A stretch of DNA of 64,000 bases from a virus, in IMG/VR virus record IMGVR_UViG_3300043429_000249, positions 4,024 to 68,023 of that record. One strand, 5' to 3'. The notes under the pieces are model-generated. The model saw only the letters and a list, made by a program, of their open reading frames with translations. It was not told the origin of the DNA and ran no database searches. Positions 7,697-64,000 of the stretch are shown piece by piece; the first letter of the stretch is position 1; each line of letters opens with the position of its first letter. A program made the translations under genes and the position numbers.

Positions 7697-7818
7697 GCGA
7701 CATGAAAGTAAGCGTGGATAACAGCGGCGACTGGCTGATTATCCTCATCGTCCTGTTCTGGGACTTTAACGGTAAGTACGACCTGTACGATGCCATCATG
7801 AACTGGCTTATGAAATGA
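7693..7818 (+). CDS. 41-aa hydrophobic peptide (not in the ORF track)
   Basis: MSDMKVSVDNSGDWLIILIVLFWDF...; stop overlaps the polymerase ATG. Confidence 0.55.
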   Translation: MSDMKVSVDNSGDWLIILIVLFWDFNGKYDLYDAIMNWLMK

Positions 7819-9635: not shown

Positions 9636-9930
9636 GCCGCCTATATGGTGGGTAGATAAGTATACTGACTCTCAATGGGAAGCCTGTCTTAACCGCGCAA
9701 AGGAATACACCGACCTGATGATGGCGCGTAGGACAGAGACGGATGAAAGACAAAAGGCTTGGCACGAACTGCGGGATAGCATGACCAGCGAAGAAGCGGA
9801 CGCATACCTGTTTAACCTAACAAAGTTAGGGATGAGCATTAGGGAGATATCTGAGTCCTTTGGGCTGACCAGCGTGTCGCACCGTATACGTAGGCACAAG
9901 CAACGAATGAAGGAGCAAGCTGATGGATAA
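9625..9930 (+). CDS. hypothetical protein with possible C-terminal HTH
   Basis: LGMSIREISESFG. Confidence 0.6.
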   Translation: MVDKPPIWWVDKYTDSQWEACLNRAKEYTDLMMARRTETDERQKAWHELRDSMTSEEADAYLFNLTKLGMSIREISESFGLTSVSHRIRRHKQRMKEQADG

Positions 9931-10444
9931 TGAAGAGATCGAAGAACCGCAGGAGATGCACCCTGCCGTGCAGTTGCTGCTGGCGCGGATGGACAGCCAC
10001 CCAGATGAGTTTGTCGGTCGTGGCCTTCATCGCTGGGAAAGCGTGTATAGCGACATTAACCACGTCGCTTCGCCCCACGAGAAGAAGGCGATGAAGGCCA
10101 AGCTGCGTGAGATTAAGATGGGTCGCATCCATAAGGAGATCATGGGGCTTCTGCTAAGAGATGCGCCAAACGAGCCGGAAGAGGCGCAAGACGCGGGAGT
10201 CACGCTTGCCCGACAACACCTACAACAGCAGCAGGACTACCAACGCATATCGGCGCAGCTGGCGCAGATGCAGGTAGATGCGCAGGCACGAGCCTTGCAG
10301 CAGTTCCAGAACACGTTTCCGCGCAGCACGGACCTCTGGAACTCATCGTCAATCGGCACCACCATGCCATCCCGATACCCGACACCCGTAGTCGGTAAGG
10401 GATTAGTCGAAACAGCTATGGATACGTTTAGGAACAAAAAATGA
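9923..10444 (+). CDS. hypothetical protein (LLL.RMDSHP.EF family)
   Basis: VQLLLARMDSHPDEF; SD AAGGAG. Confidence 0.75.
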   Translation: MDNEEIEEPQEMHPAVQLLLARMDSHPDEFVGRGLHRWESVYSDINHVASPHEKKAMKAKLREIKMGRIHKEIMGLLLRDAPNEPEEAQDAGVTLARQHLQQQQDYQRISAQLAQMQVDAQARALQQFQNTFPRSTDLWNSSSIGTTMPSRYPTPVVGKGLVETAMDTFRNKK

Positions 10445-11040
10445 CCGAATATCAATTCACGAAAGACTGGTTTGGTTGGGCACCGCCCGTATGGGAGCAG
10501 CTTATTCCACACCTGCCGGGGGAACCGGGCAACCGCACCTTCATTGAGATCGGTTCCTTTGAGGGCCGCAGCATGGTCTGGACCGCTGAAAACATGATGC
10601 AGACGGGAGATGAAATCTTCTGCATCGACACATGGGAAGGCGGCGAGGAACACGGCGATCAAAATATGAGCGAGGTGGAGAAGCGGTTCGACCACAATTC
10701 CGCAATCGTCTACGGCAACCACGACATTTCGATCCTTAAACATAAGGGGACTTCCACCAGCTATCTGGCTAGGTTCATTGAAGGCGGGGAAGCAGCCGAC
10801 TTCATCTACATCGACGGGAGCCACATCGCCAAGGATGTGCTGACCGACGCCTGTATGGCTTGGGCGCTGCTCCGCCCCAAGGGTATGATGGTCTTTGACG
10901 ACTATATGTGGGGCAACCCGCGGGACATCCTGCACCGCCCCAAACCTGCAATCGACGCCTTCTGCAACATTTTCGCGGAAGAAGCGGAGATCGTCCACGT
11001 TGGCTATCAACTGGTCGTACGCAAGAAGGGAGAAGGGTAA
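10441..11040 (+). CDS. class I SAM-dependent methyltransferase (Methyltransf_24-like)
   Basis: IEIGSFEGRS, IDTW, DFIYIDGSH, GMMVFDDY. Confidence 0.9.
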   Translation: MTEYQFTKDWFGWAPPVWEQLIPHLPGEPGNRTFIEIGSFEGRSMVWTAENMMQTGDEIFCIDTWEGGEEHGDQNMSEVEKRFDHNSAIVYGNHDISILKHKGTSTSYLARFIEGGEAADFIYIDGSHIAKDVLTDACMAWALLRPKGMMVFDDYMWGNPRDILHRPKPAIDAFCNIFAEEAEIVHVGYQLVVRKKGEG

Positions 11041-11219
11041 TGGATACTGTGTACATCGTACTGATCGTTGGGTTGGCCGCTATCTCTGGGTTCTTTTTCG
11101 GGATGGCGTACAACTTCAAGGTTGTCGGACAGATCAAACACGAGAACGAGCGGCTCAACCACGAGCTGCATAGACTGACTGACCGCGATGCACGTGGTCG
11201 CTTCAAGGGAGGTAAGTAG
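11040..11219 (+). CDS. small membrane protein
   Basis: N-terminal TM helix, coiled coil, RDARGRF tail. Confidence 0.65.
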   Translation: MDTVYIVLIVGLAAISGFFFGMAYNFKVVGQIKHENERLNHELHRLTDRDARGRFKGGK

Positions 11220-11380
11220 TGGCAAAAGGTAAGGGCAAAGCAAAGACCGCTGTTGGTCAGGTTAAGATCGTTCCCAAGCGGGCACCGTTTCGCAAAACCT
11301 GCACCACCTGTGGTTCAAGCTGGCTGGGCGACCTGATCTACGATTGCGGCCATGACGCCGTGATTGAGCAGGACATCTGA
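11219..11380 (+). CDS. 53-aa basic Cys/His (Zn-binding?) protein (not in the ORF track)
   Basis: GTG start, SD GGAGG; CTTC...CGH. Confidence 0.55.
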   Translation: MAKGKGKAKTAVGQVKIVPKRAPFRKTCTTCGSSWLGDLIYDCGHDAVIEQDI

Positions 11381-11381
11381 C

Positions 11382-11567
11382 ATGCCGTTTGTATCGCGTA
11401 AAAGGGTCGAGTGGACGCCGGAAATGGAGCGGGAGCTTTGGAACCTGTGGACCTACGGCGTCCACAAAAACGAAATCGCTGAGCGCTTAGGTATGAGCGT
11501 AGCGGCAACCGAGCAGCGGTATTACCGCATGAAACGGCAGAAAGCGAAGGAGCAAGCCGGTGAATGA
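11382..11567 (+). CDS. GcrA-like HTH protein
   Basis: WTPEMERELWNLWTYGVHKNEIAERLG resembles the GcrA N-terminal domain. Confidence 0.6.
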   Translation: MPFVSRKRVEWTPEMERELWNLWTYGVHKNEIAERLGMSVAATEQRYYRMKRQKAKEQAGE

Positions 11568-12339
11568 CGAAATCAAGGTAAAACCTGTGGAGACTAAGCG
11601 ACCTAGCATTATGATCGCTACTCCCATGTACGGTGGTATGTGTACGGGGACCTATGTGCAGGGCTTGTTGATGACCATGCAGAAGATGCGTGAGATCGGC
11701 GTCAACGTGGCATGGTGCCAGATCATGAACGAAAGCCTGATTACCCGTGCGCGGAACGATCTGGTGCGCCTCTTTCTTGAGAGTGAGCACGACTACCTTA
11801 TGTTCATCGACGCTGACATTGGGTTCGACGGGGAGGCAGTCGCGCAGCTTATGCTGGCCGACAAGGACGTATGCTGTGGCATCTACCCCAAGAAGGAAGT
11901 GAACTGGGATAGCGTTAAGCGCGCTGCACAGACTAGCCAAGCAGACCTAGAGGACTACGCCGGGGCGTTTGTCTTTAACATGATCGGCGGTGCCCATCAG
12001 GAGACGGACGAGACAGGCTGCATCGAAGTGCGCCATGGCGGCACAGGCTTCATGCTCATCAAGCGGGGGGTGTTCGAGTTTCTGAAACCCTATGTGCCTA
12101 CCTACCGCGTGTCGTCATTTAAAGACGAGAGTGGCGAATACGTAAAACCACTCACCTATGAGTTCTTCGCTACCAGCATCGACAATAGCGGCGCGCTGCT
12201 GTCGGAAGATTATCACTTTTGCGAGCTGTTTCGCAAACATGGCGGACAAATCCATGCCCACCCATTTGTCCGCCTGACCCATACAGGGACCTATATCTTT
12301 GATGGGGACATTTTGAAGAGCGGTGGCAACCTAAAGTAA
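11560..12339 (+). CDS. GT-A fold glycosyltransferase-like protein
   Basis: IATPMYGG, ESLITRARN, FIDAD (DxD), GTGFMLI, SEDYHFC. Confidence 0.85.
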   Translation: MNDEIKVKPVETKRPSIMIATPMYGGMCTGTYVQGLLMTMQKMREIGVNVAWCQIMNESLITRARNDLVRLFLESEHDYLMFIDADIGFDGEAVAQLMLADKDVCCGIYPKKEVNWDSVKRAAQTSQADLEDYAGAFVFNMIGGAHQETDETGCIEVRHGGTGFMLIKRGVFEFLKPYVPTYRVSSFKDESGEYVKPLTYEFFATSIDNSGALLSEDYHFCELFRKHGGQIHAHPFVRLTHTGTYIFDGDILKSGGNLK

Positions 12340-12351
12340 GGAGCAAGTGAA

Positions 12352-12936
12352 ATGGCTAAGAAGAAATTGGGATACGGTGAAAAGGCAGCCCGCATCATGG
12401 AGATGCTTAACCAAGGGGTGCCAGCGAAGCAAATCCGCCGGGAGCTGGGCGTAAGCCCTGCGTATATCTACGCCCTTAAAAAGCAGATGATCCATGCGGA
12501 TACGCTGGAGCTAACCGAAGACATGAAGGAAACGCTGCACGTTATGTCGCAGGGTAAGGGTAAACCCAAGCCGGGGGAGTATCTCGTGGTTGAGGGTATG
12601 GTTAGTCCACAGGCAGCCTCCGGGCTAGTGTCGGCACCGCCGGTTACGGGCGTATCGGACCCCAATAACGTCAACGCTATCCTCAACGAGCGCGGTAAAC
12701 GGTACGGAACTTTCTGGGGGCATGCCCAAATTACCCAAGACCTTAAGGCGGTGATGAGCGAGTTCTGTAGGCAGCGCAATAAGTCTTTTGACGTGGATCA
12801 GCTTGAAGCCCTTGAGATGATCTTCCACAAAATCGGGCGCATCCTAAACGGCGACCCGGACTACGCTGATAGCTGGATTGATATTGCCGGATACGCTAAG
12901 CTGGTGGCTGATCGTCTCGAAGGGAAAGTCCGATAA
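12352..12936 (+). CDS. HTH plus DUF6378-like protein
   Basis: LNERGKRYG...HKIGRILNGDPDYADSWIDIAGY. Confidence 0.75.
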   Translation: MAKKKLGYGEKAARIMEMLNQGVPAKQIRRELGVSPAYIYALKKQMIHADTLELTEDMKETLHVMSQGKGKPKPGEYLVVEGMVSPQAASGLVSAPPVTGVSDPNNVNAILNERGKRYGTFWGHAQITQDLKAVMSEFCRQRNKSFDVDQLEALEMIFHKIGRILNGDPDYADSWIDIAGYAKLVADRLEGKVR

Positions 12937-12937
12937 A

Positions 12938-13609
12938 ATGACAGCGTGGTCGTACAGCAGCATCAAGACCTTTGACCAGTGCCCGAAGAAGTACTTTCAC
13001 CTTAAGGTGGCTAAGGACGTCAAGGACGAGGGTAACGAAGCCTCTATCTATGGCAACGAAGCCCATGAAGCTGCTGAACACTACATCAAGCACGGCACCC
13101 CGATACCGGACAAGTTCAAGATTATGCGGCCAGTCGTAGAGACGCTGGCTAAGTTTCCGGGGGAGAAGCATACGGAGATGAAGCTGGGGGTAAAGAAAAC
13201 CCCGGATGGCTTCAAACCATGCGACTTCTTCGATCCTGACGTCTGGTATCGGGGTATCGTGGACCTGCTGATCGTGGACGGGTGGAACGCCCACATGATC
13301 GACTATAAGACAGGGAAGAACGCCAAATACGCCGACATGAAGCAGCTGGACCTGATGGCAGGTGCGGTATTCGTGCATTTCCCTGACGTGATGCGGATCA
13401 AGTCGGGGCTGGCTTACGTGGTAAGCAACGAGTTCCCGAAGAAGACGCATGTCCGTACTGACTTAGGTATATACATGAACGTGTTCGATACGCAGCTTAC
13501 GCAGCTTGAAGACGCGATGCAGGCTGGGGTGTTTAATCCGAAGAGCGGCCCTTTATGTGGCTGGTGTCCGGTGACTAGCTGCGAGCATCATAGACCAAGG
13601 AGAAGGTAA
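12938..13609 (+). CDS. PD-(D/E)XK exonuclease (Cas4/AddB-like)
   Basis: WSYSS...CP, GIVDL, IDYKTG, QL, C-terminal LCGWCPVTSC. Confidence 0.9.
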   Translation: MTAWSYSSIKTFDQCPKKYFHLKVAKDVKDEGNEASIYGNEAHEAAEHYIKHGTPIPDKFKIMRPVVETLAKFPGEKHTEMKLGVKKTPDGFKPCDFFDPDVWYRGIVDLLIVDGWNAHMIDYKTGKNAKYADMKQLDLMAGAVFVHFPDVMRIKSGLAYVVSNEFPKKTHVRTDLGIYMNVFDTQLTQLEDAMQAGVFNPKSGPLCGWCPVTSCEHHRPRRR

Positions 13610-13842
13610 TGGAGCAACAAGTATCAGACGAGGTGCAAGCAGCGATGAGCCTTAAGCTCATGGAAAACGTGCGCGAGCTTATCCGCGAAGAGATCAGGGC
13701 TGCACTGGAAGACTTTGATTTTATGTCCCGGACACGGGGATATGAAATAACTAACACCGTAATGCGGCACATGAACTGGGGCGACTATAACTTTAAACAG
13801 GCTGTACGACAGGTTGTAGCCGAGCAGATGCACAAGGTCTGA
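13609..13842 (+). CDS. hypothetical protein
   Basis: Coupled ORF with SD. Confidence 0.6.
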   Translation: MEQQVSDEVQAAMSLKLMENVRELIREEIRAALEDFDFMSRTRGYEITNTVMRHMNWGDYNFKQAVRQVVAEQMHKV

Positions 13843-13845
13843 CCG

Positions 13846-14070
13846 GTGATACCGAAGCCCGGTACGATGTTCGCCTTGGCGGTGGATGCACCCAATGCGG
13901 ATATGGTCATCGCTTATCATGGGTGGCTGTATAAGTTCAAATACTGGGACATTAACACAGACCAGATGATCCTGACTTCCGTCGCCACCGGGAATGAGGT
14001 ATATATAGACCTGACGACGTTTAAATTAGGTTACTTTAAGGAACTGGCTGATGCCCATGAAAGTGCGTAA
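13846..14070 (+). CDS. hypothetical protein, probable paralog of 62792..63007
   Basis: GTM...HGWLY...SVATG. Confidence 0.55.
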   Translation: MIPKPGTMFALAVDAPNADMVIAYHGWLYKFKYWDINTDQMILTSVATGNEVYIDLTTFKLGYFKELADAHESA

Positions 14071-36464: not shown

Positions 36465-39400
36465 TTACGTTGGGATTTCTACCCAAACAACAGTATTGCC
36501 GTCCACTACCTGTACCCAGTTCCCACTTTGGGAATCGTTAATCGTTTGCCAGTTCGGCGTCTGAGTGTCGTCTATACCAGACCATCCAGCACTTTGCGAG
36601 TCATTAACACTCTGCCAGTCCGGTGTCTGGACATCGGTAACTTCCTGCCAGTTCGGTGTCTGAGCGTCGTTAATTGTCGCCCATACGCCAGCCTGTGCGT
36701 CATCGACTGGTACCCACATCGGGACCTGTGCATCGTTGATCGCCTGCCAGTTCGGTGTCTGTGCGTCGTCAACCCCGTTCCAGTTCGCTGTCTGGGCATC
36801 GTTGACAGGAATCCAGTTCGGGTCCTGTGCCGGAGTAATCGGGTTCCACTTGGGGATTTCAACAGTACCGACCTGCCCAGCAGCGGACACACCGAGAACG
36901 GTGAGGATAGCCCTGCCGCTAACAGTAACGGTGCCGACAGACGCCGCAGCCGAAACCCCGGAGACAACGACCATAGTGCCGGTATCAGCAGTGGCCGTAC
37001 CAATCGTACCCGTAGCGGCTACGCCAGTAACCTCAACCTGTTGGCCAATTACAACGTCTACGGTGCCGACGGTACCCGTAGCGGAAACACCTGTGACATC
37101 TACATCTGCACGAGCAGCTGTATCGACGGTACCAACCAGACCATCTGCGGCTACGCCCGTTACGCTGACGTTGGTATTATTCCGAACTTCGACTTCAAGC
37201 CCAGAGAACGGAACAACGGAGAAGCCAGAGAAGCCCAGCAGAGCTGTGTTGTCTACGTTCCCAACGGCCTCGCTGACGTCACCGATCTCCCCAGTGGCGG
37301 AGACACCAACAAGTTCGGTGTTGGCTTTAGCTTCGACCGTAGCAGTACCGACCGAGCCAGTAGCCGATACGCCGGTTACGTAGTATGAAGAGCGAGTCGT
37401 TACATCGCCTACAAAACCATTGGCTTCTACACCGGTAACCGTGAAATTCGTATCGGTGGTTACATCAGCGGTGCCGACAAGGCCGTTGGCCGAAACACCA
37501 GTGACTGAAACGTTAATCCGCTGGGGTGTCTCGACCCCAGAGAAGGGCACGGATGCGAAGGGCGAGAAGCCCAACACCATCGTGTTATCGACGTTCCCGA
37601 CGGCTTCGGTAACGTCACCGATCTCCCCAGTGGCGGAGACACCGGAGACAAACACCGTCTCGACGTTGGTGGTAGCAGTGCCAACAAGACCGCTAGCCGA
37701 AACACCGGTAACTTCGACGTTGGTGTTATTACGAACCGATTCTTCTACGCCCGCAAACGGAACAGCGGAGAAGGGCGAGAAGCCCAACACCATCGTATTA
37801 TCAATGTTGCCGACAGCCTCGGTTACATCTCCGATCTGCCCGGTGCCTACGACGCCTGTGAGTGTGGTGTTGGCTTTAGCTGAGGTATCTACTGTACCGA
37901 CTGCACCAGAAGCAGAGACCCCAGTAACTGCAACCTGCCTGCCGAGCGCGACAAAGACGGAACCAACAAGCCCCGAAGCGGAGACACCAGTTACGAGGAC
38001 GCTGATGCCCGTACCAACCTGAACGGTACCAAGTAGCCCGTTAGCAACCACGCCGGTCAGAGTGGTATTGGCTTTACCAGTTTCGGTGGTGTCCCCGATA
38101 GCACCAGTGGCAGCAACGCCAGTTACGCTTACATTGGTATTATCCCGCTGTTTGGTCTCGACCCCAGAGAAGGGCACGGATGCAAAGGGCGAGAAGCCCA
38201 GCACCATGGTGTTATCAACGTTCCCAACGGCTTCGCTGACATCACCAGTTTGCCCAGTGCCTTCAACACCTGTGGGCGTAGTGTTAGCTTGGCCGGAAGT
38301 AGCTACAGTACCGACGGCACCAGAGGCCGATACGCCAGTGACGTAGTAACCAAAACTGAACGATACCGTGCCAATCGCACCAGTAGCGAAAACGCCGGTT
38401 ACACTGGTACTTGCGCCAATACCGACCTGAACCGTGCCGACTGATCCATTTGCAAAGACGCCGTTGACTTCGGTATTGGCTTTAGCGGAAATAGCGACCG
38501 TGCCGACTGCACCTGTGGCGGATACGCCAGTTACGCTTACATTGGTATTATCCCGCTGTTTGGTTTCAACGCCGGAGAAGGGCACAGCTGCGAAGGGCGA
38601 GAAGCCCAGCACCATTGTGTTATCAACGTTCCCAACGGCTTCGGTAACGTCACCGATTTGTCCGGTGCCTTCAACACCTGTGGGCGTAGTGTTAGCCTTA
38701 GCAGAGATGGTTACGGTACCAACTGCACCAGAGGCCGATACGCCAGTGACGTAGTAGCTAAATCTGAACGCTACAGTGCCAATTGCACCGGTAGCGGAAA
38801 CACCGGTTACGGTTGTGTTGCTGCCAATACCAACCTGAACGGTACCTACTGACCCACTGGCGAAAACACCGCTGACCTCGGTATTGGCCTTGCCTGCGAT
38901 AGCGACCGTACCGACAGTGCCTGTGGCGGATACACCCGTGACGTTGGTGTTAGTATTGTTGCGTTGGCGCTCTTCCACACCGGAGAAGGGCACAGCTGCG
39001 AAGGGCGAGAAGCCCAACACCATGGTGTTATCAACGTTCCCAACGGCTTCGCTGACGTCACCGATCTGCCCAGTGCCTACTACACCCGTTAGCGTAGTGT
39101 TAGCTTTGGCAGCGACGGTTACGGTACCAACTGCACCCGACCCAGAGACGCCAGTGACGTAGTAGGACGAGCGGAAAGTTACCGTGCCAGTAAAGCCGGT
39201 GGCAGTGACACCATTTACGGTTGTGTTGGCCTTGCCCGATACGGCTACAGTACCGACCAACCCTGAAGCAGATACACCCGTAAGAGTGGTGTTAGCTTTA
39301 GCGGAAATAGCGACCGTGCCAACTGCACCGGAAGCAGCTACACCCGTGACGTTGGTATTAGTATTGTTGCGTTGGCGCTCTTCCACACCGGAGAACGGAA

Positions 39401-41798
39401 CCGCTGAGAAGGGCGAGAAGCCCAACACCATGGTGTTGTCGATATTACCGACGGCCTCGGTTACGTCTCCGATTTGCCCGGTGCCCGCTACCCCAGTGGC
39501 GGTGGTGTTAGCTTTGGCAGCGATGGTTACGGTGCCGACTGCACCCGACGCAGATACGCCAGTGACGTAGTAAGCAGACCGGGTAGCTACCGTACCGACT
39601 GCACCTGTGGCCGAAACACCTGTGACGTAGTAGGACGAGCGGAAAGTTACCGTGCCAGTAGAGCCGGTGGCAGTGACACCAGTAACAGCGACGTTGGCTT
39701 TGCCTGTCTCAGTAGTATCCCCGACAGAACCAACAGCCGAAACACCCGTGACGGAGTAGCTAAACCTAAACGATACCGTGCCGACTGCACCAGAAGCCGA
39801 AACACCTGTAAGGGCGGTATTAGCCTTGGCGGCGACAGCTACTGTACCAACTGCACCCGACGCAGATACGCCAGTGACGTAGTAAGCAGACCGGGTAGCT
39901 ACTGTGCCAACTGCCCCGGTGCCGGAAACCCCGGTAACGGCGACATTAGCTTTAGCGACGACCGTCTCGGCACCGATGCTGCCCGTACCTGCGACGCCAG
40001 TTACGGTAGTGTTAGCCTTAGCTACGACCGTCTCGGCACCAATGGTGCCCGTAGCGGAAACGCCCGTTACGCTGACGTTGGTGTTATCTCGCTGTTTGGT
40101 CTCTACACCGGAGAAGGGCACGGATGCGAAGGGCGAAAAGCCCAGCACCATCGTGTTATCGACGTTTCCGACAGCCTCACCGACGTCACCGATTTGCCCG
40201 GTGCCTACCACACCAGTTACACTTACGTTGGCTTTAGCAACGACCGTTTCGGCACCAGTGGTGCCTGTAGCGGACACGCCCGTGAGGGTGGCATTAGCCT
40301 TAGCTACGACCGTCTCGGCACCGGTGGTGCCTGTGGCGGATACGCCTGTAAGGGTGGTATTAGCTTTAGCTACGACCGTCTCGGCACCGGTGGTGCCTGT
40401 AGCGGACACGCCGGTTACGGTGACATTAGCCTTAGCTACGACTGTTTCGGCACCGGTGGTGCCTGTAGCGGCTACACCGGTTACGGCTGTGCGGGTGTTA
40501 AGGTATGCGGTAACCGTACCGACAGACCCAGTGGCCGATACGCCAGTGACGCTAACGGTAGCATTAGTTCTGGCGACTACGGTAACCGTACCGGTGGTGC
40601 CTGTAGCAGATACACCCGTAAGAGTGGTGTTAGCCTTAGCTACGACCGTCTCGGCACCGGTGGTGCCTGTGGCGGATACACCAGTTACGCTGACGTTGGT
40701 GTTATTGCGTGGTGCAACCTCGACGCCGGAGAAGGGTACAGCTGCAAAGGGCGAGAAGCCCAACACCATGGTGTTATCAACGTTCCCGACAGCCTCGGTT
40801 ACATCCCCGATCTGCCCAGTAGCAGAGACACCTGTAGCGGTTACGTTAGCTCTAGCTACGACCGTCTCGGCACCGGTGGTGCCTGTAGCGGATACGCCCG
40901 TGAGGGTGACGTTGGCTTTAGCAACGACCGTCTCGGCACCGGTGGTGCCTGTGGCAGATACACCTGTGAGGGTTGTGTTAGCCTTAGCTACGACCGTCTC
41001 GGCACCAATGGTACCTGTGGCAGAGACACCCGTAAGGGTTGCGTTAGCTTTAGCTACGACCGTCTCGGCACCAATGGTGCCTGTAGCTGAAACCCCGGTT
41101 ACAGCTGTGCTGGTGTTAAGGTATACAGTAACCGTACCAACCGAACCGGTAGCGGAAACGCCGGTAACGGTAACATTAGCCTTAGCTGCGACCGTCTCAG
41201 CACCAATGGTGCCCGTAGCGGAGACACCAGTAACAGTGGTGTTAGCCTTGGCGACTATAGTCTCTGTGCCGATGGACCCAGTAGCGAAAACACCAGTAAG
41301 GGTGACGTTGGCTTTAGCAACGACCGTTTCGGCACCAGTGGTGCCTGTAGCGGACACGCCCGTGAGGGTGGCATTAGCCTTAGCAACGACTGTTTCGGCA
41401 CCGGTGGTGCCTGTGGCGGATACGCCTGTAAGGGTGACGTTAGCCTTAGCTACGACCGTCTCGGCACCAATGGTGCCTGTGGCGGATACGCCTGTAAGGG
41501 TGACGTTAGCCTTGGCGACTATAGTCGCTGTACCAATGGACCCGGTAGCGGACACGCCCGTGGCGTTGACGGAGACAGAGACAGCCCCGGCAGTGATGAC
41601 CTCAACACCAGAAAACGGTACCGCGGAGAAGGGCGAGAAGCCCAACACCATGGTATTATCGACATTACCGACCTGCGTGGTAACAGTGCCGACAGAACCT
41701 GTAGCAGATACGCCAGTAGCGTTAACCGATACCGATACCGATCCACCGGCTTGGAGGTCAGCTGCGGCAGGTAGGAGTGGTTGGTATAACCAACTCAT
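36465..41798 (-). CDS. 1777-aa Thr/Gly/Val-rich repetitive fibre-like virion protein
   Basis: ~22-aa TGVSATG repeats, 10 GFSPF-type modules, 11-aa Trp repeats. Confidence 0.8.
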   Translation of the reverse strand: MSWLYQPLLPAAADLQAGGSVSVSVNATGVSATGSVGTVTTQVGNVDNTMVLGFSPFSAVPFSGVEVITAGAVSVSVNATGVSATGSIGTATIVAKANVTLTGVSATGTIGAETVVAKANVTLTGVSATGTTGAETVVAKANATLTGVSATGTTGAETVVAKANVTLTGVFATGSIGTETIVAKANTTVTGVSATGTIGAETVAAKANVTVTGVSATGSVGTVTVYLNTSTAVTGVSATGTIGAETVVAKANATLTGVSATGTIGAETVVAKANTTLTGVSATGTTGAETVVAKANVTLTGVSATGTTGAETVVARANVTATGVSATGQIGDVTEAVGNVDNTMVLGFSPFAAVPFSGVEVAPRNNTNVSVTGVSATGTTGAETVVAKANTTLTGVSATGTTGTVTVVARTNATVSVTGVSATGSVGTVTAYLNTRTAVTGVAATGTTGAETVVAKANVTVTGVSATGTTGAETVVAKANTTLTGVSATGTTGAETVVAKANATLTGVSATGTTGAETVVAKANVSVTGVVGTGQIGDVGEAVGNVDNTMVLGFSPFASVPFSGVETKQRDNTNVSVTGVSATGTIGAETVVAKANTTVTGVAGTGSIGAETVVAKANVAVTGVSGTGAVGTVATRSAYYVTGVSASGAVGTVAVAAKANTALTGVSASGAVGTVSFRFSYSVTGVSAVGSVGDTTETGKANVAVTGVTATGSTGTVTFRSSYYVTGVSATGAVGTVATRSAYYVTGVSASGAVGTVTIAAKANTTATGVAGTGQIGDVTEAVGNIDNTMVLGFSPFSAVPFSGVEERQRNNTNTNVTGVAASGAVGTVAISAKANTTLTGVSASGLVGTVAVSGKANTTVNGVTATGFTGTVTFRSSYYVTGVSGSGAVGTVTVAAKANTTLTGVVGTGQIGDVSEAVGNVDNTMVLGFSPFAAVPFSGVEERQRNNTNTNVTGVSATGTVGTVAIAGKANTEVSGVFASGSVGTVQVGIGSNTTVTGVSATGAIGTVAFRFSYYVTGVSASGAVGTVTISAKANTTPTGVEGTGQIGDVTEAVGNVDNTMVLGFSPFAAVPFSGVETKQRDNTNVSVTGVSATGAVGTVAISAKANTEVNGVFANGSVGTVQVGIGASTSVTGVFATGAIGTVSFSFGYYVTGVSASGAVGTVATSGQANTTPTGVEGTGQTGDVSEAVGNVDNTMVLGFSPFASVPFSGVETKQRDNTNVSVTGVAATGAIGDTTETGKANTTLTGVVANGLLGTVQVGTGISVLVTGVSASGLVGSVFVALGRQVAVTGVSASGAVGTVDTSAKANTTLTGVVGTGQIGDVTEAVGNIDNTMVLGFSPFSAVPFAGVEESVRNNTNVEVTGVSASGLVGTATTNVETVFVSGVSATGEIGDVTEAVGNVDNTMVLGFSPFASVPFSGVETPQRINVSVTGVSANGLVGTADVTTDTNFTVTGVEANGFVGDVTTRSSYYVTGVSATGSVGTATVEAKANTELVGVSATGEIGDVSEAVGNVDNTALLGFSGFSVVPFSGLEVEVRNNTNVSVTGVAADGLVGTVDTAARADVDVTGVSATGTVGTVDVVIGQQVEVTGVAATGTIGTATADTGTMVVVSGVSAAASVGTVTVSGRAILTVLGVSAAGQVGTVEIPKWNPITPAQDPNWIPVNDAQTANWNGVDDAQTPNWQAINDAQVPMWVPVDDAQAGVWATINDAQTPNWQEVTDVQTPDWQSVNDSQSAGWSGIDDTQTPNWQTINDSQSGNWVQVVDGNTVVWVEIPT

Positions 41799-60758: not shown

Positions 60759-61108
60759 CGGGTCCCCTTAAGGGGGGTATCTGGAAATATGGGGTGCCAG
60801 CCATTCGGTGGCTAAATGTTAGGGGTACCCCCTTAGGTGTAAGCATTGTAAGGCCTAATTTCCTGTCGTGTTAATTTTTTATGTGCCTGTAACCCGCAGG
60901 AAAGCTGGAATGTAAAGAAAGTGCGGGGGTGATTGACTCGGAAGTGAGTCGTGTAACGTGCAGAACAGTATGTATATAGGAGGAGCGGAGTCCCATCTCA
61001 CGCGCGGGGGGTGCGGGGGCGGTGGGTGCGCGCGGGCGCGGGTTTCATATACCCTAGCCCTGTTTTTCGCCCCATCCCCTAGTTTTTGGCTGTTTTCCGT
61101 GGGTTTTG

Positions 61109-61122
61109 CCTAACATGTTAGG
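61109..61122. promoter_or_regulatory. CCTAACATGTTAGG palindrome
   Basis: Perfect; ~30 bp upstream of an early -35 box. Confidence 0.9.
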
Positions 61123-61150
61123 TATTTTGGCCGCTAGCATACGATTTTTC

Positions 61151-61179
61151 TTGCAATACATGATTAACCCTGCCATAAC
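61151..61179 (+). promoter_or_regulatory. early sigma70 promoter overlapped by a CtrA-like box
   Basis: TTGCAA-17-CATAAC; TTAA-N7-ATAAC at 61164-61179. Confidence 0.55.
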
Positions 61180-61232
61180 CAAATCATCGAGAGCGGATGG
61201 CGCTTTCGACTAACCAAGTAGGAGCATACATC

Positions 61233-61811
61233 ATGGCTAACGCCACAAATACGACCGCCGCCTTTGTCATCATGAATGGCGAAAAGATTGACGTTGACGT
61301 AACAAACGTATCGCTTGACTCAATCATCAACGAGATGGTGGAAGTCACCAAGCGAGAGCATGGCGCACATATCCGTATCGCCGCCAAGCTGAATGACCTG
61401 TTGCCTTTCGCTTGGTATGACGTAGCACCGCAAGAGAAGAGCGACAATGCCACCGCCTTTGCGCCTCACTGGAAGGCCGTTTACGATGGCTTCAAAAAAG
61501 CAGGACATAGCAATCCGTCCGTGCCCGGTAAGCGTATCCGTGACTATGGCCGGAATCTCCGGGCTGGCCTCGCCCCTAATGGCAAGACGATGGCTGATGG
61601 CACGGCGCTGGCCGAAGGCGAAGGCACGGATGGCGAAGGCGCGAATCCGGCCAAGCGGTCGCCCATGTTGCGCAACGTCGAAGAGCTGACCGCGCTTTGG
61701 AAGTTCAACGATAAGTTGGCAGGCGAGGCACCTGCCAAAGTGCAGGCGGCACAAAAGCATATCGTCGCCGCGCTGGCCGCTTTGGGGCTTGACGTTAAGA
61801 CGATCAAATAA
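61233..61811 (+). CDS. first early gene, hypothetical protein
   Basis: SD TAGGAG; flanked by a promoter and a terminator; start revised. Confidence 0.8.
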   Translation: MANATNTTAAFVIMNGEKIDVDVTNVSLDSIINEMVEVTKREHGAHIRIAAKLNDLLPFAWYDVAPQEKSDNATAFAPHWKAVYDGFKKAGHSNPSVPGKRIRDYGRNLRAGLAPNGKTMADGTALAEGEGTDGEGANPAKRSPMLRNVEELTALWKFNDKLAGEAPAKVQAAQKHIVAALAALGLDVKTIK

Positions 61812-61814
61812 CCA

Positions 61815-61828
61815 CCTAACATGTTAGG
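61815..61828. promoter_or_regulatory. CCTAACATGTTAGG palindrome
   Basis: Perfect; between a stop codon and a terminator. Confidence 0.9.
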
Positions 61829-61835
61829 CCAAACG

Positions 61836-61867
61836 GGGTCGGATGGGAAACCATCCGGCCCTTTTTT
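61836..61867 (+). terminator. intrinsic terminator
   Basis: GGGTCGGATGG-GAAA-CCATCCGGCCC-TTTTTT. Confidence 0.85.
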
Positions 61868-61987
61868 GTGCGCGGGTTCTATCACCCCAACTATCATTGG
61901 GGTTCTATCACCAAAAGGGGATGAACGAGCGGGGCGTGAACGCGCGAGTAAGAGCGGCGCGACCTGTTACCTGCCCCGCAGGTAACA

Positions 61988-62001
61988 CCTAACATGTTAG
62001 G
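61988..62001. promoter_or_regulatory. CCTAACATGTTAGG palindrome inside a -35/-10 spacer
   Basis: Perfect 14-mer. Confidence 0.9.
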
Positions 62002-62020
62002 AGTCAAGCACCCAAGCAAC

Positions 62021-62048
62021 AAAAAAGGCCGGGCTGTTCGACCCGACC
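62021..62048 (-). terminator. minus-strand intrinsic terminator between the two repeats
   Basis: GGTCGGG-TCGAACAG-CCCGGCC-TTTTTT. Confidence 0.65.
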
Positions 62049-62508
62049 TGATAACTGCCCCGCAGTTATCACTTTAAGCGCCGCCTGTCAAGCACCGCGG
62101 TGTAAAAAATGTTGTAAGCGTTGTAAGGTGTAATGTAAACTCGTTTTTGGCAGTTTTCCGGGCTTTGTAAAATGTTATGAGATTTTTGAAGTATGAACAG
62201 AAATCCTATAGCGACCCTCTACGCAAGTGCAGCACCCTCCCCCAAACCCTCTACGTAGGTATACTTTTTTTTTCTATTAACATTATAACATTATAACAAT
62301 ACAATACAACAACAACGGAAATCCTAGCTTTTTGCCGCCACCATCCTGTAAACCCATTTCCTAACATCCGTCTTACATTACACCCGATTTCCTTACAGTC
62401 ACCGCTGCGACCATGCGGTATTGCATTGTTAGCTTTTATGTTGTAGGTTTAATTTATGGTGGATGAGTGGCATCCACCTGACCCTGTGCCGGATGGCACG
62501 ACGATTAG

Positions 62509-62522
62509 CCTAACATGTTAGG
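62509..62522. promoter_or_regulatory. CCTAACATGTTAGG palindrome
   Basis: Perfect; just upstream of an RBS. Confidence 0.9.
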
Positions 62523-62536
62523 CAGGAGACAGGACG

Positions 62537-62788
62537 ATGATGACACGTCAAGAGTATAAGGCTCAATGCCTTCGCAACTACAACGCTGGCTACCATGACG
62601 CGATCAATGGCCGCAAACCCGACAACGAAAACTTCTACTACCTGATGGGCCACGAAGAAGGCTGGCCCAAGCGTCTCATCCCGACAGTCATCATGACTGC
62701 CCACGGCCCGATCACCGAACGCTGCACCTTGGAACGCGCTGCCTTTCTTGTTGCATCTAATTCACGCACACCCGGCGGGAGGCGCTAA
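62537..62788 (+). CDS. hypothetical early protein
   Basis: SD AGGAG; YNAGYHDAING. Confidence 0.7.
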   Translation: MMTRQEYKAQCLRNYNAGYHDAINGRKPDNENFYYLMGHEEGWPKRLIPTVIMTAHGPITERCTLERAAFLVASNSRTPGGRR

Positions 62789-62791
62789 GTT

Positions 62792-63007
62792 ATGCCTAAC
62801 ATGTTAGGTAGAGGGACGCTGGTATGGGTGACGCCCAAGGTAAACCCCAACCGCTACGTCGATTTGCATGGTGCGCTGTGGGTAGTGTCGGAAGCGAGCG
62901 TAAGCGACCCAAGCTGGTATTGGTGCAGGTCGCTGGCAACCAACATGCTGTTTGACTGGCACAAGAGCGAGATAGAAGAAGTGAAGGACTGCGCGGATGC
63001 GGTTTAA
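62792..63007 (+). CDS. hypothetical early protein; palindrome at 62795-62808 overlaps its first codons
   Basis: SD GGAGG; resembles 13846..14070. Confidence 0.65.
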   Translation: MPNMLGRGTLVWVTPKVNPNRYVDLHGALWVVSEASVSDPSWYWCRSLATNMLFDWHKSEIEEVKDCADAV

Positions 63008-63212
63008 GAAACGGGCAAAGCCCGCAAAGGTATTGTCGATGCTGCGCGACTTGGAAAAGGCAGACCGTGCCTTGTGCGATGCAGTGCTGAACAACGTGCT
63101 GACCGAAGTGGGGGAACGCCAACTGCGCAACCTGCTGCATTGGGTGCGTGAGTGCCAGAAAGACGCGAAGCGTGAACTAAATATGGAGGAAGCCAATGAC
63201 ACCCGACGATAA
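62997..63212 (+). CDS. hypothetical early protein
   Basis: Overlapping-operon arrangement. Confidence 0.6.
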   Translation: MRFKKRAKPAKVLSMLRDLEKADRALCDAVLNNVLTEVGERQLRNLLHWVRECQKDAKRELNMEEANDTRR

Positions 63213-63384
63213 GAAAGACCTGCGCGACCTGCGCAACGACACCATCGACCCGGAGGACAAGAAGCTATTGCGCAAAACCCTGAATTACATTCAGGCCCTC
63301 GAAGCGAAGCTGCATTCCACGCGCACACTGGCAAGAGCGATCCAGAACGAAGCGCAACTAGGTAAGGGAGCGGACGATGAGTGA
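63196..63384 (+). CDS. hypothetical coiled-coil early protein
   Basis: SD GGAGG. Confidence 0.7.
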   Translation: MTPDDKKDLRDLRNDTIDPEDKKLLRKTLNYIQALEAKLHSTRTLARAIQNEAQLGKGADDE

Positions 63385-63388
63385 TACA

Positions 63389-63402
63389 CCTAACATGTTA
63401 GG
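63389..63402. promoter_or_regulatory. CCTAACATGTTAGG palindrome
   Basis: Perfect; intergenic. Confidence 0.9.
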
Positions 63403-63413
63403 GGGTAAAAAAG

Positions 63414-63632
63414 ATGGATAAGACACGGATGGACGCAATATGCTGCGACTGTGGGGAGATATACCCGACGAAGCGCAAGGAACTGGGCTATCGCACCTGC
63501 CTTGCCTGTGGTGACAGCGCGGCGAAGCAAGTGAAGTGGACCGTGACCATACCCTATTCCAAGGGTGCGTATCAGGTAGTCAGCAACAGAGAAGAATTAA
63601 AAGCAACCAACCCGAAGAGGACAGGCGAATGA
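63414..63632 (+). CDS. C4 zinc-finger protein (DksA/TraR-like finger)
   Basis: CCDCGE...RKELGYRTCLACG. Confidence 0.7.
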   Translation: MDKTRMDAICCDCGEIYPTKRKELGYRTCLACGDSAAKQVKWTVTIPYSKGAYQVVSNREELKATNPKRTGE

Positions 63633-63859
63633 GGGAACCGAAGATCATAAGCGTGAAGGCAATACAGGCGGACCATAGCTTCAAGGTGACAATCACGGCG
63701 CACATGGCGCGCAAGCTGCCTGACTGGGTGCAGAGTAAGGTGCAGCTATTCGAGGGGGAGGATCGCCATGCGTGGACAGTCCTGCGGGCCAAGGACGAAC
63801 TGGAAGCGGTGATTAGGTTTAAGCGGCTATGGGCAGCGTTGACCAAGATAGGAGACTAA
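63629..63859 (+). CDS. small protein, DE(L/M) family; paralog of 6618..6899
   Basis: Start revised to the ATGA overlap; stop codon inside the palindrome. Confidence 0.75.
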   Translation: MREPKIISVKAIQADHSFKVTITAHMARKLPDWVQSKVQLFEGEDRHAWTVLRAKDELEAVIRFKRLWAALTKIGD

Positions 63860-63868
63860 CATGTTAGG
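63855..63868. promoter_or_regulatory. palindrome (13/14) supplying both a TAA stop and an ATG start
   Basis: ACTAACATGTTAGG; ATG 63861 opens a 27-aa ORF ending at 63944. Confidence 0.8.
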
Positions 63869-64000
63869 CAAAGTAAGAGAGTGGGCAGACAAGGCACGGC
63901 GCATCATGTGCGATAGCGAAGGGGAATACTCATGGGAACTGTAGTGATCCGCGAAGAAGGAGCAAATCACATGGAGGCAGAAACACCTGTGAGGGCGGTA

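Follow-up and report, generated by a model that had tools for sequence, protein, structure and literature searches.

Repeated palindromes in the early gene block of a family of uncultured phages, tentatively read as DNA operators

Why would a phage repeat one short palindrome through its early genes, at gene ends, over start codons and beside promoters? The question is raised by CCTAACATGTTAGG, which recurs in the window, the 64-kb stretch of DNA analysed here. The window covers bases 4024-68023 of a virus record that is 68,023 bp long and has overlapping ends. Positions in the window are marked w and positions in the whole record are marked g. Genes were called with a crude rule, ORF plus Shine-Dalgarno (SD) sequence, and the transcription start sites are predictions.

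The window holds nine perfect copies of CCTAACATGTTAGG (w1937, w3293, w6195, w61109, w61815, w61988, w62509, w62795 and w63389) and two copies with one mismatch (w291 and w63855), all of them where a first-pass annotation had placed them. In 100 dinucleotide-preserving shuffles of the window, perfect copies appeared in 0/100, and sites with up to two mismatches, of which the window has 11, averaged 0.15. A further copy, listed as a one-nucleotide deletion variant (w60811-60823), lies in the divergent intergenic region and has two differences, a first C changed to G and one base missing, and is a weak look-alike. The interval between 6.2 and 60.8 kb, described as empty, is so for sites with up to two mismatches, but a relaxed 15-bp spacer variant with three central bases, CCTAACAAAGTTAGG, had been missed at w9816-9830; it lies inside an ORF after the DNA polymerase and its status is uncertain. 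The 4 kb beyond the window hold three further perfect copies (g284, g1380 and g2414). The whole record has 14 unique sites, 12 perfect and two with one mismatch, all within g65132-g10218 across the junction, which is 13.2 kb of ~67.8 kb. By a hand estimate, the chance of such clustering is ~1e-8. This stretch is the beginning of the + strand gene arm. The early region had been supposed to be contiguous across the window ends; the record ends overlap and the sites span the junction.

Most of the sites lie at gene junctions, as had been noted, but not all of them. The first early gene, E1 (w61233-61811, + strand, 192 amino acids, homologues in 34 loci), has sites on both flanks. The upstream site (w61109-61122) is 110 nt 5' of the E1 start and 28 nt 5' of a -35-like TTGCAA; the downstream site (w61815-61828), 3 nt past the E1 stop, is separated by 6 nt from a terminator hairpin further downstream (w61835-61862). 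In the non-coding control region of ~700 bp, site w61988-62001 is directly 3' of a 24-nt hairpin. A promoter with this site in its spacer had been proposed, but the promoter scan did not detect it there. The sole sigma70-like promoter predicted on the + strand of the control region is at w62277-62305, and it is overlapped by three direct, half-site-like TAACA pentamers (w62278-62298, + strand) with an 8-bp period. Site w62509-62522 is followed 14 nt downstream by the start codon w62537, with an SD sequence between them, and site w62795-62808 overlaps the initial codons of ORF w62792-63007. Site w63389-63402 lies between a stop codon, 4 nt upstream, and the start of a zinc-ribbon gene, 11 nt downstream (w63414). 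The one-mismatch site w63855-63868, which is g39 at the overlapping contig end, provides the stop (TAA) of the upstream ORF and, preceded by an SD sequence, the start (central ATG) of the next.

At the other end of the window, the DUF2201/VWA gene (w297-1505) starts at the central ATG of the one-mismatch site w291-304, with the SD sequence AGGAG 9 nt upstream. The perfect site w1937-1950, whose TAA ends ORF w1543-1941, is followed by a small hairpin; in its syntenic counterpart in L051, one arm is altered. The TAA of the perfect site w3293-3306 ends ORF w3079-3297, 23 nt 5' of the start w3330. The last perfect site (w6195-6208) adjoins the stop of the gene for an RHH-like protein and precedes both a terminator (w6219-6244) and a sigma70-like promoter (w6254-6281); the exact 14-mer is retained at this position in L012, L019, L021, L023, L032 and L049. 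The motif letters include TAA, ATG and TAG. Overall, the TAA is the stop codon of the preceding ORF at three sites (w1937, w3293 and w63855), the central ATG is a start codon at w291, at w63855 and probably at g284, a start codon lies 11-26 nt 3' of the site in five cases, and terminators directly follow two sites (w61815 and w6195). One site away from the junctions is a decayed one-mismatch 13-mer within the DUF2201 gene (w1270-1282), at the position of a family-wide intragenic site; the earlier reading had missed it.

Relatives of the phage show that the actual unit consists of the conserved arms CTAACA and TGTTAG around 0-2 central bases. In IMG/VR, 277 relatives were matched. In five of the five near-complete ones, all 9-19 copies are inside one early block of 9.1-10.9 kb. 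The exact 14-mer is present in 46 IMG/VR stretches, 13 of which are relatives of the phage, and 80 loci found via the ATPase carry 594 one-base-spacer sites, 459 of them unique, where counts from related loci are non-independent. The versions of the motif are clade-specific and both arms change together, as in CTTAAC-N3-4-GTTAAG, GTTAGTG-N3-CACTAAC and TTAGGGA-N2-TCCCTAA. Half-sites are spaced by 0, 1 or 2 bp, mixed inside the single genomes L128, L129 and L130, and by up to 3-4 in the L051 lineage. Some close relatives (L079, L103, L091 and L126) have few or no sites (0-2). Lineage-specific versions of the palindrome are common to a very large family of uncultured phages, and the earlier claim of a real, functional, multi-copy element limited to the early arm is supported. 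Neither the arm-conserved unit with its variable centre nor the very large family that shares it had been remarked on before.

The sites are restricted to the early block, they are conserved in the family at large and they are selected as nucleotide sequence. The intragenic DUF2201 site is full in 27 of 52 distinct sequences from relatives, and in lineages with CTGACA arms the encoded peptide NIVS becomes DICQ, which preserves their own motif; since the site is kept at the expense of amino-acid changes, selection acts on the nucleotides themselves. Both arms are read sequence-specifically. Against 519 unique perfect sites, each single change in the inner arms is seen 0-7 times, and the single variants have no excess of G.U-type (wobble) changes. 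The C to T change at the first position is seen three times and its mirror, G to A, 14 times. There is no orientation signal, A-centred and T-centred sites being nearly balanced (241 vs 192). The flanks of the common one-base-spacer version are not conserved (information content at most 0.4 bits), and two adjacent flank bases of the rarer two-base-spacer versions have 0.5-1.4 bits. Folded as an RNA hairpin, the site of this phage reaches only -2.1 kcal/mol, and the hairpin is present in 8 of 14 local folds.

The relation of the sites to promoters and to translation starts was also followed in the relatives. Of 24 E1 upstream regions, 17 have a site before the -35 of the strong predicted sigma70-like promoter of E1, and the remaining seven have decayed one-mismatch versions of it. 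In L072, L074 and L084, the E1 promoter is between two sites. The distance from the site to the -10 varies continuously, from 51.5 to 68.5 bp, with no fixed helical phase. In the closest one-base-spacer clade, a site precedes the next promoter, 16-17 nt before its TTGACA. The DNA that holds these promoter-upstream sites is probably not transcribed. The TAACA triplet over the promoter is found as the same element in L018, L072 and L073, and L018, L073 and L074 have three to five direct repeats of TGTTAG per 200 bp, compared with ~0.1 expected. A strong sigma70-like promoter within 45 nt downstream is present at only 32 of 558 sites. A called start is overlapped by 62 of 524 sites, compared with 28 of 2620 random positions, and the central ATG opens an ORF of at least 40 codons in 129 of 292 cases, compared with 68 of 584 in other frames.

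Based on these results, we tentatively propose that the palindromes are putative DNA binding sites for a sequence-specific protein of two-fold symmetry that controls the early block. One protein, phage-encoded or recruited from the host, would recognise the half-site CTAACA. The sites mark the first transcription block of 10-13 kb, that of the early genes: they are on either side of the first early promoter, populate the control region that follows E1 and occupy nearly every short gap between early genes. Once occupied, they would switch the entire block together. The protein would act in DNA, not in RNA, presumably as a repressor, and its likeliest action would be a shut-off once it accumulates, with initiation and elongation blocked. 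The excess of sites, their clustering, their conservation, the selection on their nucleotides, the sequence-specific reading of both arms and their clade-specific types favour this operator reading, and so do the promoter-upstream sites, the stand-alone half-sites, the weak RNA hairpin and the missing wobble excess. The overlap with stop and start codons may be a by-product, because a site of 13-14 bp has to be fitted into very short gaps. On the other side, rigid dimeric DNA binders rarely tolerate a spacing of 0-2 bp mixed within genomes; the many overlaps with translation starts, the few nearby promoters and the lack of a fixed phase to the E1 promoter also speak against operators, as does the lack of a co-varying binder.

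The dimeric protein that silences the early arm in the first-pass annotation survives here as the symmetric binder of the best reading, but the three candidates it named gained no support. The RHH-like small protein (w5973-6194, + strand), which has no Pfam match, was found by HMM in 54 of the 65 loci that cover its neighbourhood, site-free ones included, and its beta-strand is constant across motif types. The XRE-type HTH protein (w17354-17584, + strand; Pfam HTH_3, E 4e-6) is in all 10 relatives' records searched, and its recognition helix does not track the motif type. The confident model of E1 (pLDDT 83) shows neither a DNA-binding nor any other known fold; it gave no match to a PDB fold at E at or below 0.001. 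The conserved C4 zinc-ribbon early protein (w63414-63632, + strand, 72 amino acids, homologues in 51 loci) has weak similarity to TraR/DksA-type zinc fingers (six of 24 members, best E 7e-4; PDB TraR E 0.09), and no co-variation with the motif type was found for it. Site-free relatives also carry the RHH-like, XRE and zinc-ribbon proteins.

The sites could instead work in RNA: in the polycistronic early mRNA each would form a small hairpin, with 5-6 pairs in the stem and 3-4 nt in the loop, at which a sequence-specific RNA-binding protein represses translation or an endoribonuclease cuts the early messages. RegA and RegB of phage T4, or a coat-protein operator, are models for such action. We regard this as rather unlikely, though it accounts for several observations. 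Every lineage's version is compatible with a 3-4 nt loop on a stem of 5-7 pairs, which fits a hairpin reader and counts against operators; the loop or spacer varies, even within genomes; lineages differ in their arms by compensatory changes (A-T to G-C, C-G to T-A); and the hybrid sites of L120, CTGACA..TGTTAG, would have a G.U pair on the sense strand. The strong tie to translation starts and SD sequences, the location of all sites within one co-directional gene block and the candidate DNA binders that do not co-vary with the motif point the same way. However, the wobble excess is absent, the hairpin of this phage is marginal, the two orientations are nearly balanced, and the first early promoter has conserved sites upstream of it. 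The pre-terminator sites and the isolated half-site arrays have no obvious role in RNA, and the internal DUF2201 site is far from any start codon. Quite improbable is a use of the palindrome as a crossover point that shuffles early cassettes among related phages. The early block is indeed highly variable, most of its 33 ORFs having no homologue in 138 related loci, and a motif that brings a stop and a start codon would keep swapped junctions expressible. Of 1050 homology breakpoints, 77 (7.3%) are no more than 10 bp from a site, a 3.5-fold enrichment over random positions (2.1%), which agrees weakly with the cassette-boundary idea of the first-pass annotation but is expected of any element located at junctions. 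Moreover, 13-14 bp is short for homologous exchange, and this use leaves unexplained why the motif is palindromic, why an intragenic site persists at the expense of amino acids and why sites flank promoters. The PeSL cassettes of T4-type phages, the model for such linkers, were reportedly described by Arbiol et al. in 2010. PeSLs are composite units of an early promoter and a stem-loop terminator that are implicated in indels (Comeau et al. 2014, PMC4122927). Like the present sites, they are short and conserved and delimit variable early genes in hyperplastic regions. Unlike PeSLs, most of the present sites have no promoter nearby, and few breakpoints fall at them.

Still less probable is that the palindromes, extruded as DNA hairpins, serve an unrecognised phage RNA polymerase, like the three early promoters of coliphage N4. 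The phage shares its ATPase and DUF2201/VWA pair, at ~31% identity, with roughly 77-kb Vibrio phage records, which we take to be N4-like, and the layout of the genome, with an early arm opposite a late arm and a giant virion protein last, resembles that of N4. The N4 hairpins, small inverted repeats of the early region, have a GC-rich loop region and a conserved, asymmetric segment that spans -17 to +1, and the virion RNA polymerase reads them sequence-specifically; stems of 5-7 bp with a 3-nt loop match their published description (Lenneman and Rothman-Denes 2015, PMC4496689). The present phage differs in having 14 symmetric, AT-centred copies with unconserved flanks, which carry no directional information, and many sites contain the start codon of the very gene to be transcribed. 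No RNA polymerase was found in sequence searches of PHROGs, Pfam and PDB; a search of the genome for PF00940 was empty and its control was silent as well. The giant protein resembles the LPD5/LPD38 polyvalent proteins of Stx podophages, not RNA polymerase. Least probable of all is a centromere-like, packaging or ejection-control array. A single cluster of 10-13 kb, as with parS-type sites, beside the divergence region of the late and early arms, would suit it, but the sites follow individual gene junctions and start codons and not a single locus, and an essential signal would not allow relatives with 0-2 sites. No ParB_N domain was found in the genome, which also weakens the centromere suggested earlier, and no integrase or other plasmid-prophage trait was found either, as the first-pass annotation had reported for the integrase.

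Returning to operators, multi-copy palindromic sites across an early region, the conserved inverted repeats (CIRs), are bound by the c repressor in Streptomyces phage phiC31. That phage is temperate with a known repressor, whereas neither lysogeny genes nor a binder were found in the present one. In Cluster A mycobacteriophages (L5, Bxb1), stoperators are asymmetric sites, oriented with transcription and bound by the immunity repressor of temperate phages, and they are thought to silence a block by stopping RNA polymerase (PMC4351075). The present sites share with them the many short copies in the gene gaps of a transcription block, but the term stoperator-like, used in the first-pass annotation, does not apply in its strict sense because these palindromes have no orientation and no sign of lysogeny was seen in the phage. 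Mycobacteriophages of Cluster K have the start-associated sequence (SAS), an asymmetric 13-mer that contains the SD sequence, and the extended SAS (ESAS), whose imperfect 17-bp arms are 4-13 bp apart (Pope et al. 2011, PMC3203893). Like the present motif, these elements are limited to the non-structural half of the genome, associated with translation starts and conserved at homologous genes, and the ESAS is an inverted repeat with a variable spacer and a consensus that differs by subcluster (PMC3203893). The present motif differs in being a single near-perfect palindrome of 13-14 bp, which is next to the SD sequence or covers the start codon and also occurs at promoters, at terminators and within a gene.

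The closest known analogues are the 17-bp dyad-symmetry repeats TGTTCGGNNNCCGAACA of Cluster O mycobacteriophages, for which a dimeric DNA-binding protein was predicted (Cresawn et al. 2015, PMC4351075), and this kind of element has already been seen in other phages. Both elements have invariant inverted arms around a variable centre, and the Cluster O repeats are likewise present in tens of copies per genome, in phages that, like the present one, are not obviously temperate (PMC4351075). Many copies of both are intergenic, some are near the 5' ends of genes or inside genes, and they have no meaningful orientation and are mostly away from promoters. The two elements are unlike in sequence and arm length. 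Those of Cluster O are genome-wide and denser at one end, whereas the present copies are all in one early block, and the spacer of 0-2 within the family and within genomes and the stop and start codons in the motif are particular to the present motif. Few or no repeats are described at indel ends in Cluster O (PMC4351075), whereas breakpoints are modestly enriched at the present motif.

Nine perfect copies of the 14-base palindrome CCTAACATGTTAGG, reported in the first-pass annotation, are present in the window at w1937, w3293, w6195, w61109, w61815, w61988, w62509, w62795 and w63389 (w, window coordinate; g, coordinate on the whole record). The copies matching at 13 of 14 positions, at w291 and w63855, were recovered by a scan allowing up to two mismatches. 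The palindrome did not occur in any of 100 dinucleotide-preserving shuffles of the window, and the 11 window sites found at up to two mismatches compare with a shuffle mean of 0.15. The putative deletion variant at w60811 has two differences and is at most a weak look-alike. Three further perfect copies, g284, g1380 and g2414, lie in the 4 kb beyond the window, so that the genome has 12 perfect and two one-mismatch unique sites. All 14 sites are contained in 13.2 kb of about 67.8 kb, from g65132 over the junction of the record ends to g10218, and the chance probability of such clustering is near 1e-8 by a hand estimate. Confinement of all copies to the early block was found in all six complete genomes examined. 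A 15-bp variant at g3853 falls in the motif of an HNH endonuclease (peptide PNNVRW) and is probably due to chance.

The virus record, of 68,023 bp, is rated complete. Its ends overlap, with g1-86 equal to g67840-67925 and g143-241 equal to g67925-68023. The overlapping ends (window 63840-64000 and g1-241) differ by an indel of 56-57 bp within a small ORF, which starts at the central ATG of the w63855 site and has products of 27 or 46 aa with the same ends. The indel looks like a population variant caught by the assembly. An overlap present in two versions that differ by a short indel indicates that the genome is circular, circularly permuted or terminally redundant. The plus-strand arm runs from about g64700 over the junction to about g24500 and has many small ORFs; it encodes an AAA ATPase (PHROG 1297), a DUF2201/VWA protein, a VRR-NUC nuclease, DNA polymerase A, a helicase and a primase. 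The minus-strand arm encodes the terminase, the portal, structural proteins and two giant proteins of 1777 and 2231 aa. The sites are limited to the first part of the plus-strand arm, in a zone that ends at a strong terminator (w6219-6244), after which come a sigma70-like promoter and the replication genes. No nucleotide match to the region was found among GenBank phages; the closest cultured terminase relatives, at 50-57% identity, are Phage DSL-LC04, the Pelagibacter phages HTVC027P and HTVC023P, and Planktothrix phage Pag-Yong1.

With genes called by a crude rule of ORF plus Shine-Dalgarno sequence (SD), the proposed placement at gene junctions is borne out for most of the 14 sites. One site is located 110 nt upstream of the start of E1, the first early gene (w61233-61811, plus strand, 192 aa), another lies 3 nt past the E1 stop codon and 6 nt ahead of the E1 terminator, and a third is within the non-coding region behind E1. 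Five sites are followed by an SD and, 11-26 nt downstream of the site, by a start codon. At w291, w63855 and probably g284, the start codon is the central ATG of the site itself, with an SD 8-9 nt upstream, while at w1937, w3293 and w63855 the stop codon of the upstream gene is the TAA of the motif. One site abuts the stop codon of the RHH-like gene (w5973-6194), just ahead of the terminator w6219-6244. The motif contains TAA, ATG and TAG, and the genome uses these codons; their overlap with gene starts and stops would result from fitting a site of 13-14 bp into very short gaps.

The region behind E1 (window 61830-62500) comprises roughly 700 bp without convincing ORFs. It has back-to-back terminators at w61835-61862 (plus strand) and w62049-62026 (minus strand), two similar hairpins with a CTGCCCCGCAG core at about w61964-61987 and w62049-62072, a polypyrimidine tract and an AT-rich short-period repeat. 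Parts of it are kept in the related IMG/VR loci L018, L072, L073 and L074. The stretch may serve as a promoter cluster or encode a non-coding RNA; the promoter that had been placed around w61988 was not detected by a promoter scan.

The exact 14-mer was found in 46 IMG/VR stretches, 13 of which are relatives of the phage by tblastx, with a protein identity of about 35-85%; in these 13 the centre varies (AG, CT, CC, AA, TT or three bases) and the arms are constant. A search with the ATPase matched 277 IMG/VR stretches, and 80 loci, windows of at most 21 kb, were analysed from 277 or more relatives. These loci contain 594 CTAACA-N-TGTTAG sites, 459 of them unique (centre A 241, T 192, G 15, C 11), as well as 78 sites with two central bases and 47 copies of CTGACA-NN-TGTCAG. 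From the counts of one- and two-base spacers, the family-wide unit is composed of the arms CTAACA and TGTTAG separated by 0, 1 or 2 bases; the spacer in the present phage is zero. The flanks show no strong conservation: their information content does not exceed 0.4 bits around the common sites with a one-base spacer, and reaches 0.5-1.4 bits in the two bases next to the rarer two-base versions. In five near-complete relatives (61-66 kb), all 9-19 sites are located in one block of 9.1-10.9 kb, with none elsewhere.

The versions of the motif are clade-specific on a quick maximum-likelihood tree of the ATPase, with support of 99 for the two-base-spacer clade and 100 for the mixed CTGACA clade. 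Mixed spacer lengths, mixed arm types and hybrid sites are found within single genomes (L116, L120, L128-L130), and the lineages of L079, L091, L103, L126, L052, L053 and L057 have 0-2 sites, only one of the site-free loci having good upstream coverage. An 80%-identical relative has the version CTTAAC-N3-4-GTTAAG; site-by-site comparison showed that its sites are syntenic, with a C-to-T or G-to-A change in one or both arms. A search with the DUF2201 protein retrieved more distant relatives (43-48% identity), with different palindromes at the like place, just 5' of the SD and start: GTTAGTG-N3-CACTAAC in nine copies and TTAGGGA-N2-TCCCTAA in 6-7 copies. These are the palindromes proper to L054/L056 (about 5800-13900) and L060/L061, respectively. 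Behind each palindrome of L060/L061 comes a repeated leader, ACAAACTGGAGAA.GACA ATG, so that whole 5' leader modules are repeated there.

One site lies inside the DUF2201 gene, about 1 kb from its start. Of 52 distinct sequences from relatives, 27 retain it, with (S/P/A)NIVS as the encoded peptide. The CTGACA lineages have their own motif with two central bases at this place, which changes the peptide to SDICQT, the site-free lineages have yet another peptide, and the present genome has a one-mismatch copy (w1270). Judged from these sequences, the nucleotide motif itself is under selection, the DUF2201 site being kept at an amino-acid cost.

Furthermore, the 519 unique perfect sites occur in 1.29 Mb together with few imperfect ones, each single change in the inner arms being seen 0-7 times. 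On this comparative ground, the sites are read sequence-specifically, beyond mere pairing. Our preferred reading, which we hold tentatively, is that they form an array of operators, bound as DNA by a symmetric, sequence-specific protein that controls the early block. In 24 relatives, the region upstream of E1 has a site 5' of the -35 element of a strong sigma70-like promoter of the form TTGnnn, 17 nt, TGnTATAAT; this site is perfect in 17 of them and decayed in 7. Three lineages have a second site in the E1 leader, so that the promoter is flanked, and the nearest clade with one-base spacers has a TTGACA 16-17 nt downstream of the site that lies at the end of the RHH-like gene. Direct repeats of the half-site TGTTAG are found behind E1 in L018, L073 and L074, at 3-5 per 200 bp compared with about 0.1 expected, and in the present genome three TAACA with an 8-bp period lie over the predicted promoter w62277-62305, an element also present in L018, L072 and L073. 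The RNA hairpin of the present phage's site is marginal: its energy is -2.1 kcal/mol, and 8 of 14 local folds contain it. The sites upstream of promoters, the isolated half-site repeats and the marginal hairpin were all counted in favour of a role at the DNA level.

An operator read as an RNA hairpin is possible, though unlikely. Spacers of 0-2 bases (3-4 in one lineage) are mixed inside single genomes, and a stem of 5-7 pairs closing a loop of 3-4 nt can be drawn for every version. The position of the sites also favours this alternative: 62 of 524 unique sites are on a called start, compared with 28 of 2620 random positions, and 80 further sites are 10-39 nt upstream of one (63 of 2620 random positions), in counts that come from related loci and are thus not independent events. 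The central ATG opens an ORF of at least 40 codons at 129 of 292 ATG-oriented sites, compared with 68 of 584 in other frames, and 69 of these 129 have an SD upstream. A strong sigma70-like promoter (at least 10 of 12 matches; transcription starts are predicted only) lies within 45 nt downstream of only 32 of 558 sites; the mirrored count is 6, and the rate at random positions 0.9%. No fixed helical phase was seen in the spacing between the site and the E1 promoter. However, among the single variants of the 519 sites, sense-strand changes that give G.U pairs were not favoured over their mirror images, and the marginal fold, the sites 5' of the E1 promoter and the half-site repeats speak against RNA as well. 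A likeness of the motif arms to sigma70 -35 and -10 elements was considered by eye and dropped.

Somewhat less likely still is a related proposal, in which the sites are small hairpins, in early mRNA or extruded DNA, that are read by a sequence-specific protein and are not duplex operators. Such a reader would accept stems with a swapped base pair and loops of 3-4 nt. Many early genes have the hairpin over the start codon or immediately 5' of the SD, and hairpins also precede early terminators; with this placement, the protein would stop translation, or cut the messages, of an entire early operon at once. If true, the hairpins would amount to a post-transcriptional switch acting on a whole operon, in a large family of uncultured phages in which each lineage's hairpins evolve in concert.

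A role of the sites as linkers for recombination, the cassette boundaries of the first-pass annotation, is improbable. Internal ends of alignments of at least 80% identity between related loci were counted as breakpoints; 77 of 1050 (7.3%) fall within 10 bp of a site, compared with 2.1% in a random-position control. The support from this is weak, since mosaic joints too are common at gene junctions and the placement of the sites there could by itself give such an enrichment. Hairpin promoters of the N4 type are still more improbable. The idea was raised by the layout of the genome and by the pair of ATPase and DUF2201/VWA protein (the latter w297-1505), which is about 31% identical to a pair in Vibrio phage records of roughly 77 kb that we take to be N4-like. 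The 2231-aa giant virion protein (w20761-27456) carries LPD38, and the resemblance of its C-terminal third is to LPD5/LPD38 polyvalent proteins, found in Stx-converting podophages and in Vibrio phages of 60 kb, rather than to a virion RNA polymerase. The proteins of 402 and 283 aa are not RNA polymerase II subunits, and searches of PHROGs, Pfam and PDB sequences gave no match to RNA polymerase families in the genome; a search for a T7-type polymerase (PF00940) was empty but carries little weight, as its control was silent too. The N4 early promoters, according to an excerpt of their description (PMC4496689), are three directional hairpin sites read by the virion polymerase. The present sites are similar in hairpin geometry, with a 6-bp stem and a 3-nt loop for one-base spacers and a 5-bp stem and a 4-nt loop for the zero-spacer site of this phage (5-7 bp and 3 nt in N4). 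However, the motif has no direction, and conserved directional sequence from -17 to +1 is lacking. On these grounds, N4-type promoters were rejected as the main reading. A centromere-like or entry signal is the least credible of the proposals: no ParB_N (PF02195) match was found in the genome, the control being positive in 10 of 14 genomes.

No binder was singled out among the RHH-like, XRE HTH, zinc-ribbon and E1 proteins, and the three candidates that had been named for this role gained no support. The RHH-like protein has no Pfam match; its HMM matches in 54 of 65 loci covering the neighbourhood, site-free ones included, and its β-strand is the same across motif types. The XRE HTH protein (w17354-17584; Pfam HTH_3, E 4e-6) is present in all 10 relatives' records searched, and its recognition helix does not track the motif type. 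E1 is modelled with confidence as an all-helical protein (pLDDT 83.4), for which Foldseek found no PDB match at E ≤ 0.001, and a profile search of the PDB gave nothing; its atlas neighbours are viral hypothetical clusters only, with a lead to DUF3102 at 0.85. A zinc-ribbon protein of 72 aa is widely conserved, but was rejected: its weak similarity to TraR/DksA-type zinc fingers would point to polymerase binding, not DNA binding, and it is also found in the site-free L079. That leaves a reader that tolerates the variation seen, one encoded in another part of the genome, or one supplied by the host.

The array is a real, functional and family-wide conserved feature, of a known kind whose mechanism is unsolved: dyad repeats of early regions have been described several times (Cluster O, ESAS and the CIRs of phiC31, which are operators), and a mechanism is lacking in lytic-looking phages. 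A general search of the literature on palindromic repeats in phage early genes returned nothing relevant. Among described elements, the dyad repeat of 17 bp in Cluster O mycobacteriophages comes closest. In the excerpt of its description used here (PMC4351075), this repeat is present in more than 30 copies, with invariant arms around a variable centre; many of the copies are intergenic or near gene 5' ends, and most are away from promoters. The phages are not obviously temperate, and a dimeric DNA binder is predicted for a repeat of unknown function. Likewise, the arms CTAACA and TGTTAG are constant in the 519 unique sites while the centre varies, and variants of the inner arms are few. However, the Cluster O sequence, TGTTCGG-N3-CCGAACA, is spread throughout the genome, whereas the present sites have another sequence and are in one early block.

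The comparison with stoperators made in the first-pass annotation holds for the many copies in short gaps, 14 sites in 13.2 kb. However, stoperators, as excerpted in the same source (PMC4351075), are asymmetric, oriented and belong to temperate phages, those of Cluster A being oriented with transcription and bound by the immunity repressor, whereas the present site is a perfect palindrome without orientation (the central base of the 459 unique one-base-spacer sites is A in 241 and T in 192). In keeping with the reported absence of an integrase, no PF00589 tyrosine integrase was found in the complete record, the control being positive in 14 of 14 genomes. The start-associated sequences (SAS) and extended inverted repeats (ESAS) of Cluster K are, in an excerpt of their description (PMC3203893), linked to start codons, located in the non-structural half and subcluster-specific in consensus. 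The present sites are also tied to translation starts in the non-structural half, by crude gene calls. However, the SAS is an asymmetric 13-mer 5' of the start that holds the SD itself, whereas the present motif is palindromic, SD-free and placed 5' of the SD or over the start codon. The PeSLs of T4-type phages are composites of promoter and terminator at indel ends, as far as an excerpt describes them (PMC4122927); the present sites lack this composite structure, as 32 of 558 have a sigma70-like promoter within 45 nt and a few adjoin terminators.

The family provides a rich comparative set, with hundreds of environmental relatives, several motif versions, mixed or transitional genomes and site losses, and the intragenic site kept at an amino-acid cost adds to its value. 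What reads the sites, and whether it does so in DNA or in RNA, is therefore directly testable. In addition, the motif is a practical metagenome marker for the early block of this phage family.

Several other features of the genome were observed. Its ancestry is mosaic, as the ATPase/VWA pair and the giant virion protein point to different phage groups. Ten TGTTAG hexamers lie on the plus strand at window 38282-41245, inside the minus-strand gene w36465-41798 of the 1777-aa protein, for which no PHROG, Pfam or PDB sequence match was found; their spacings are all multiples of 6, which points to an in-frame repeated peptide, and this run is not part of the site system. The adjacent small genes of window 4458-5887 all start with the same codons (MTD...), two of them with the common N-terminus MTD(D/N)DKALVE(R/E)LR. 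They look like a tandem array of paralogues, with no homologue in the 138 related loci searched. Between the ATPase and DUF2201 genes sits the inserted HNH endonuclease gene (g3562-4065, window up to 42), which is not at that place in the 80-88% identical relative L051/L064 and is present in L120 at 65% identity.
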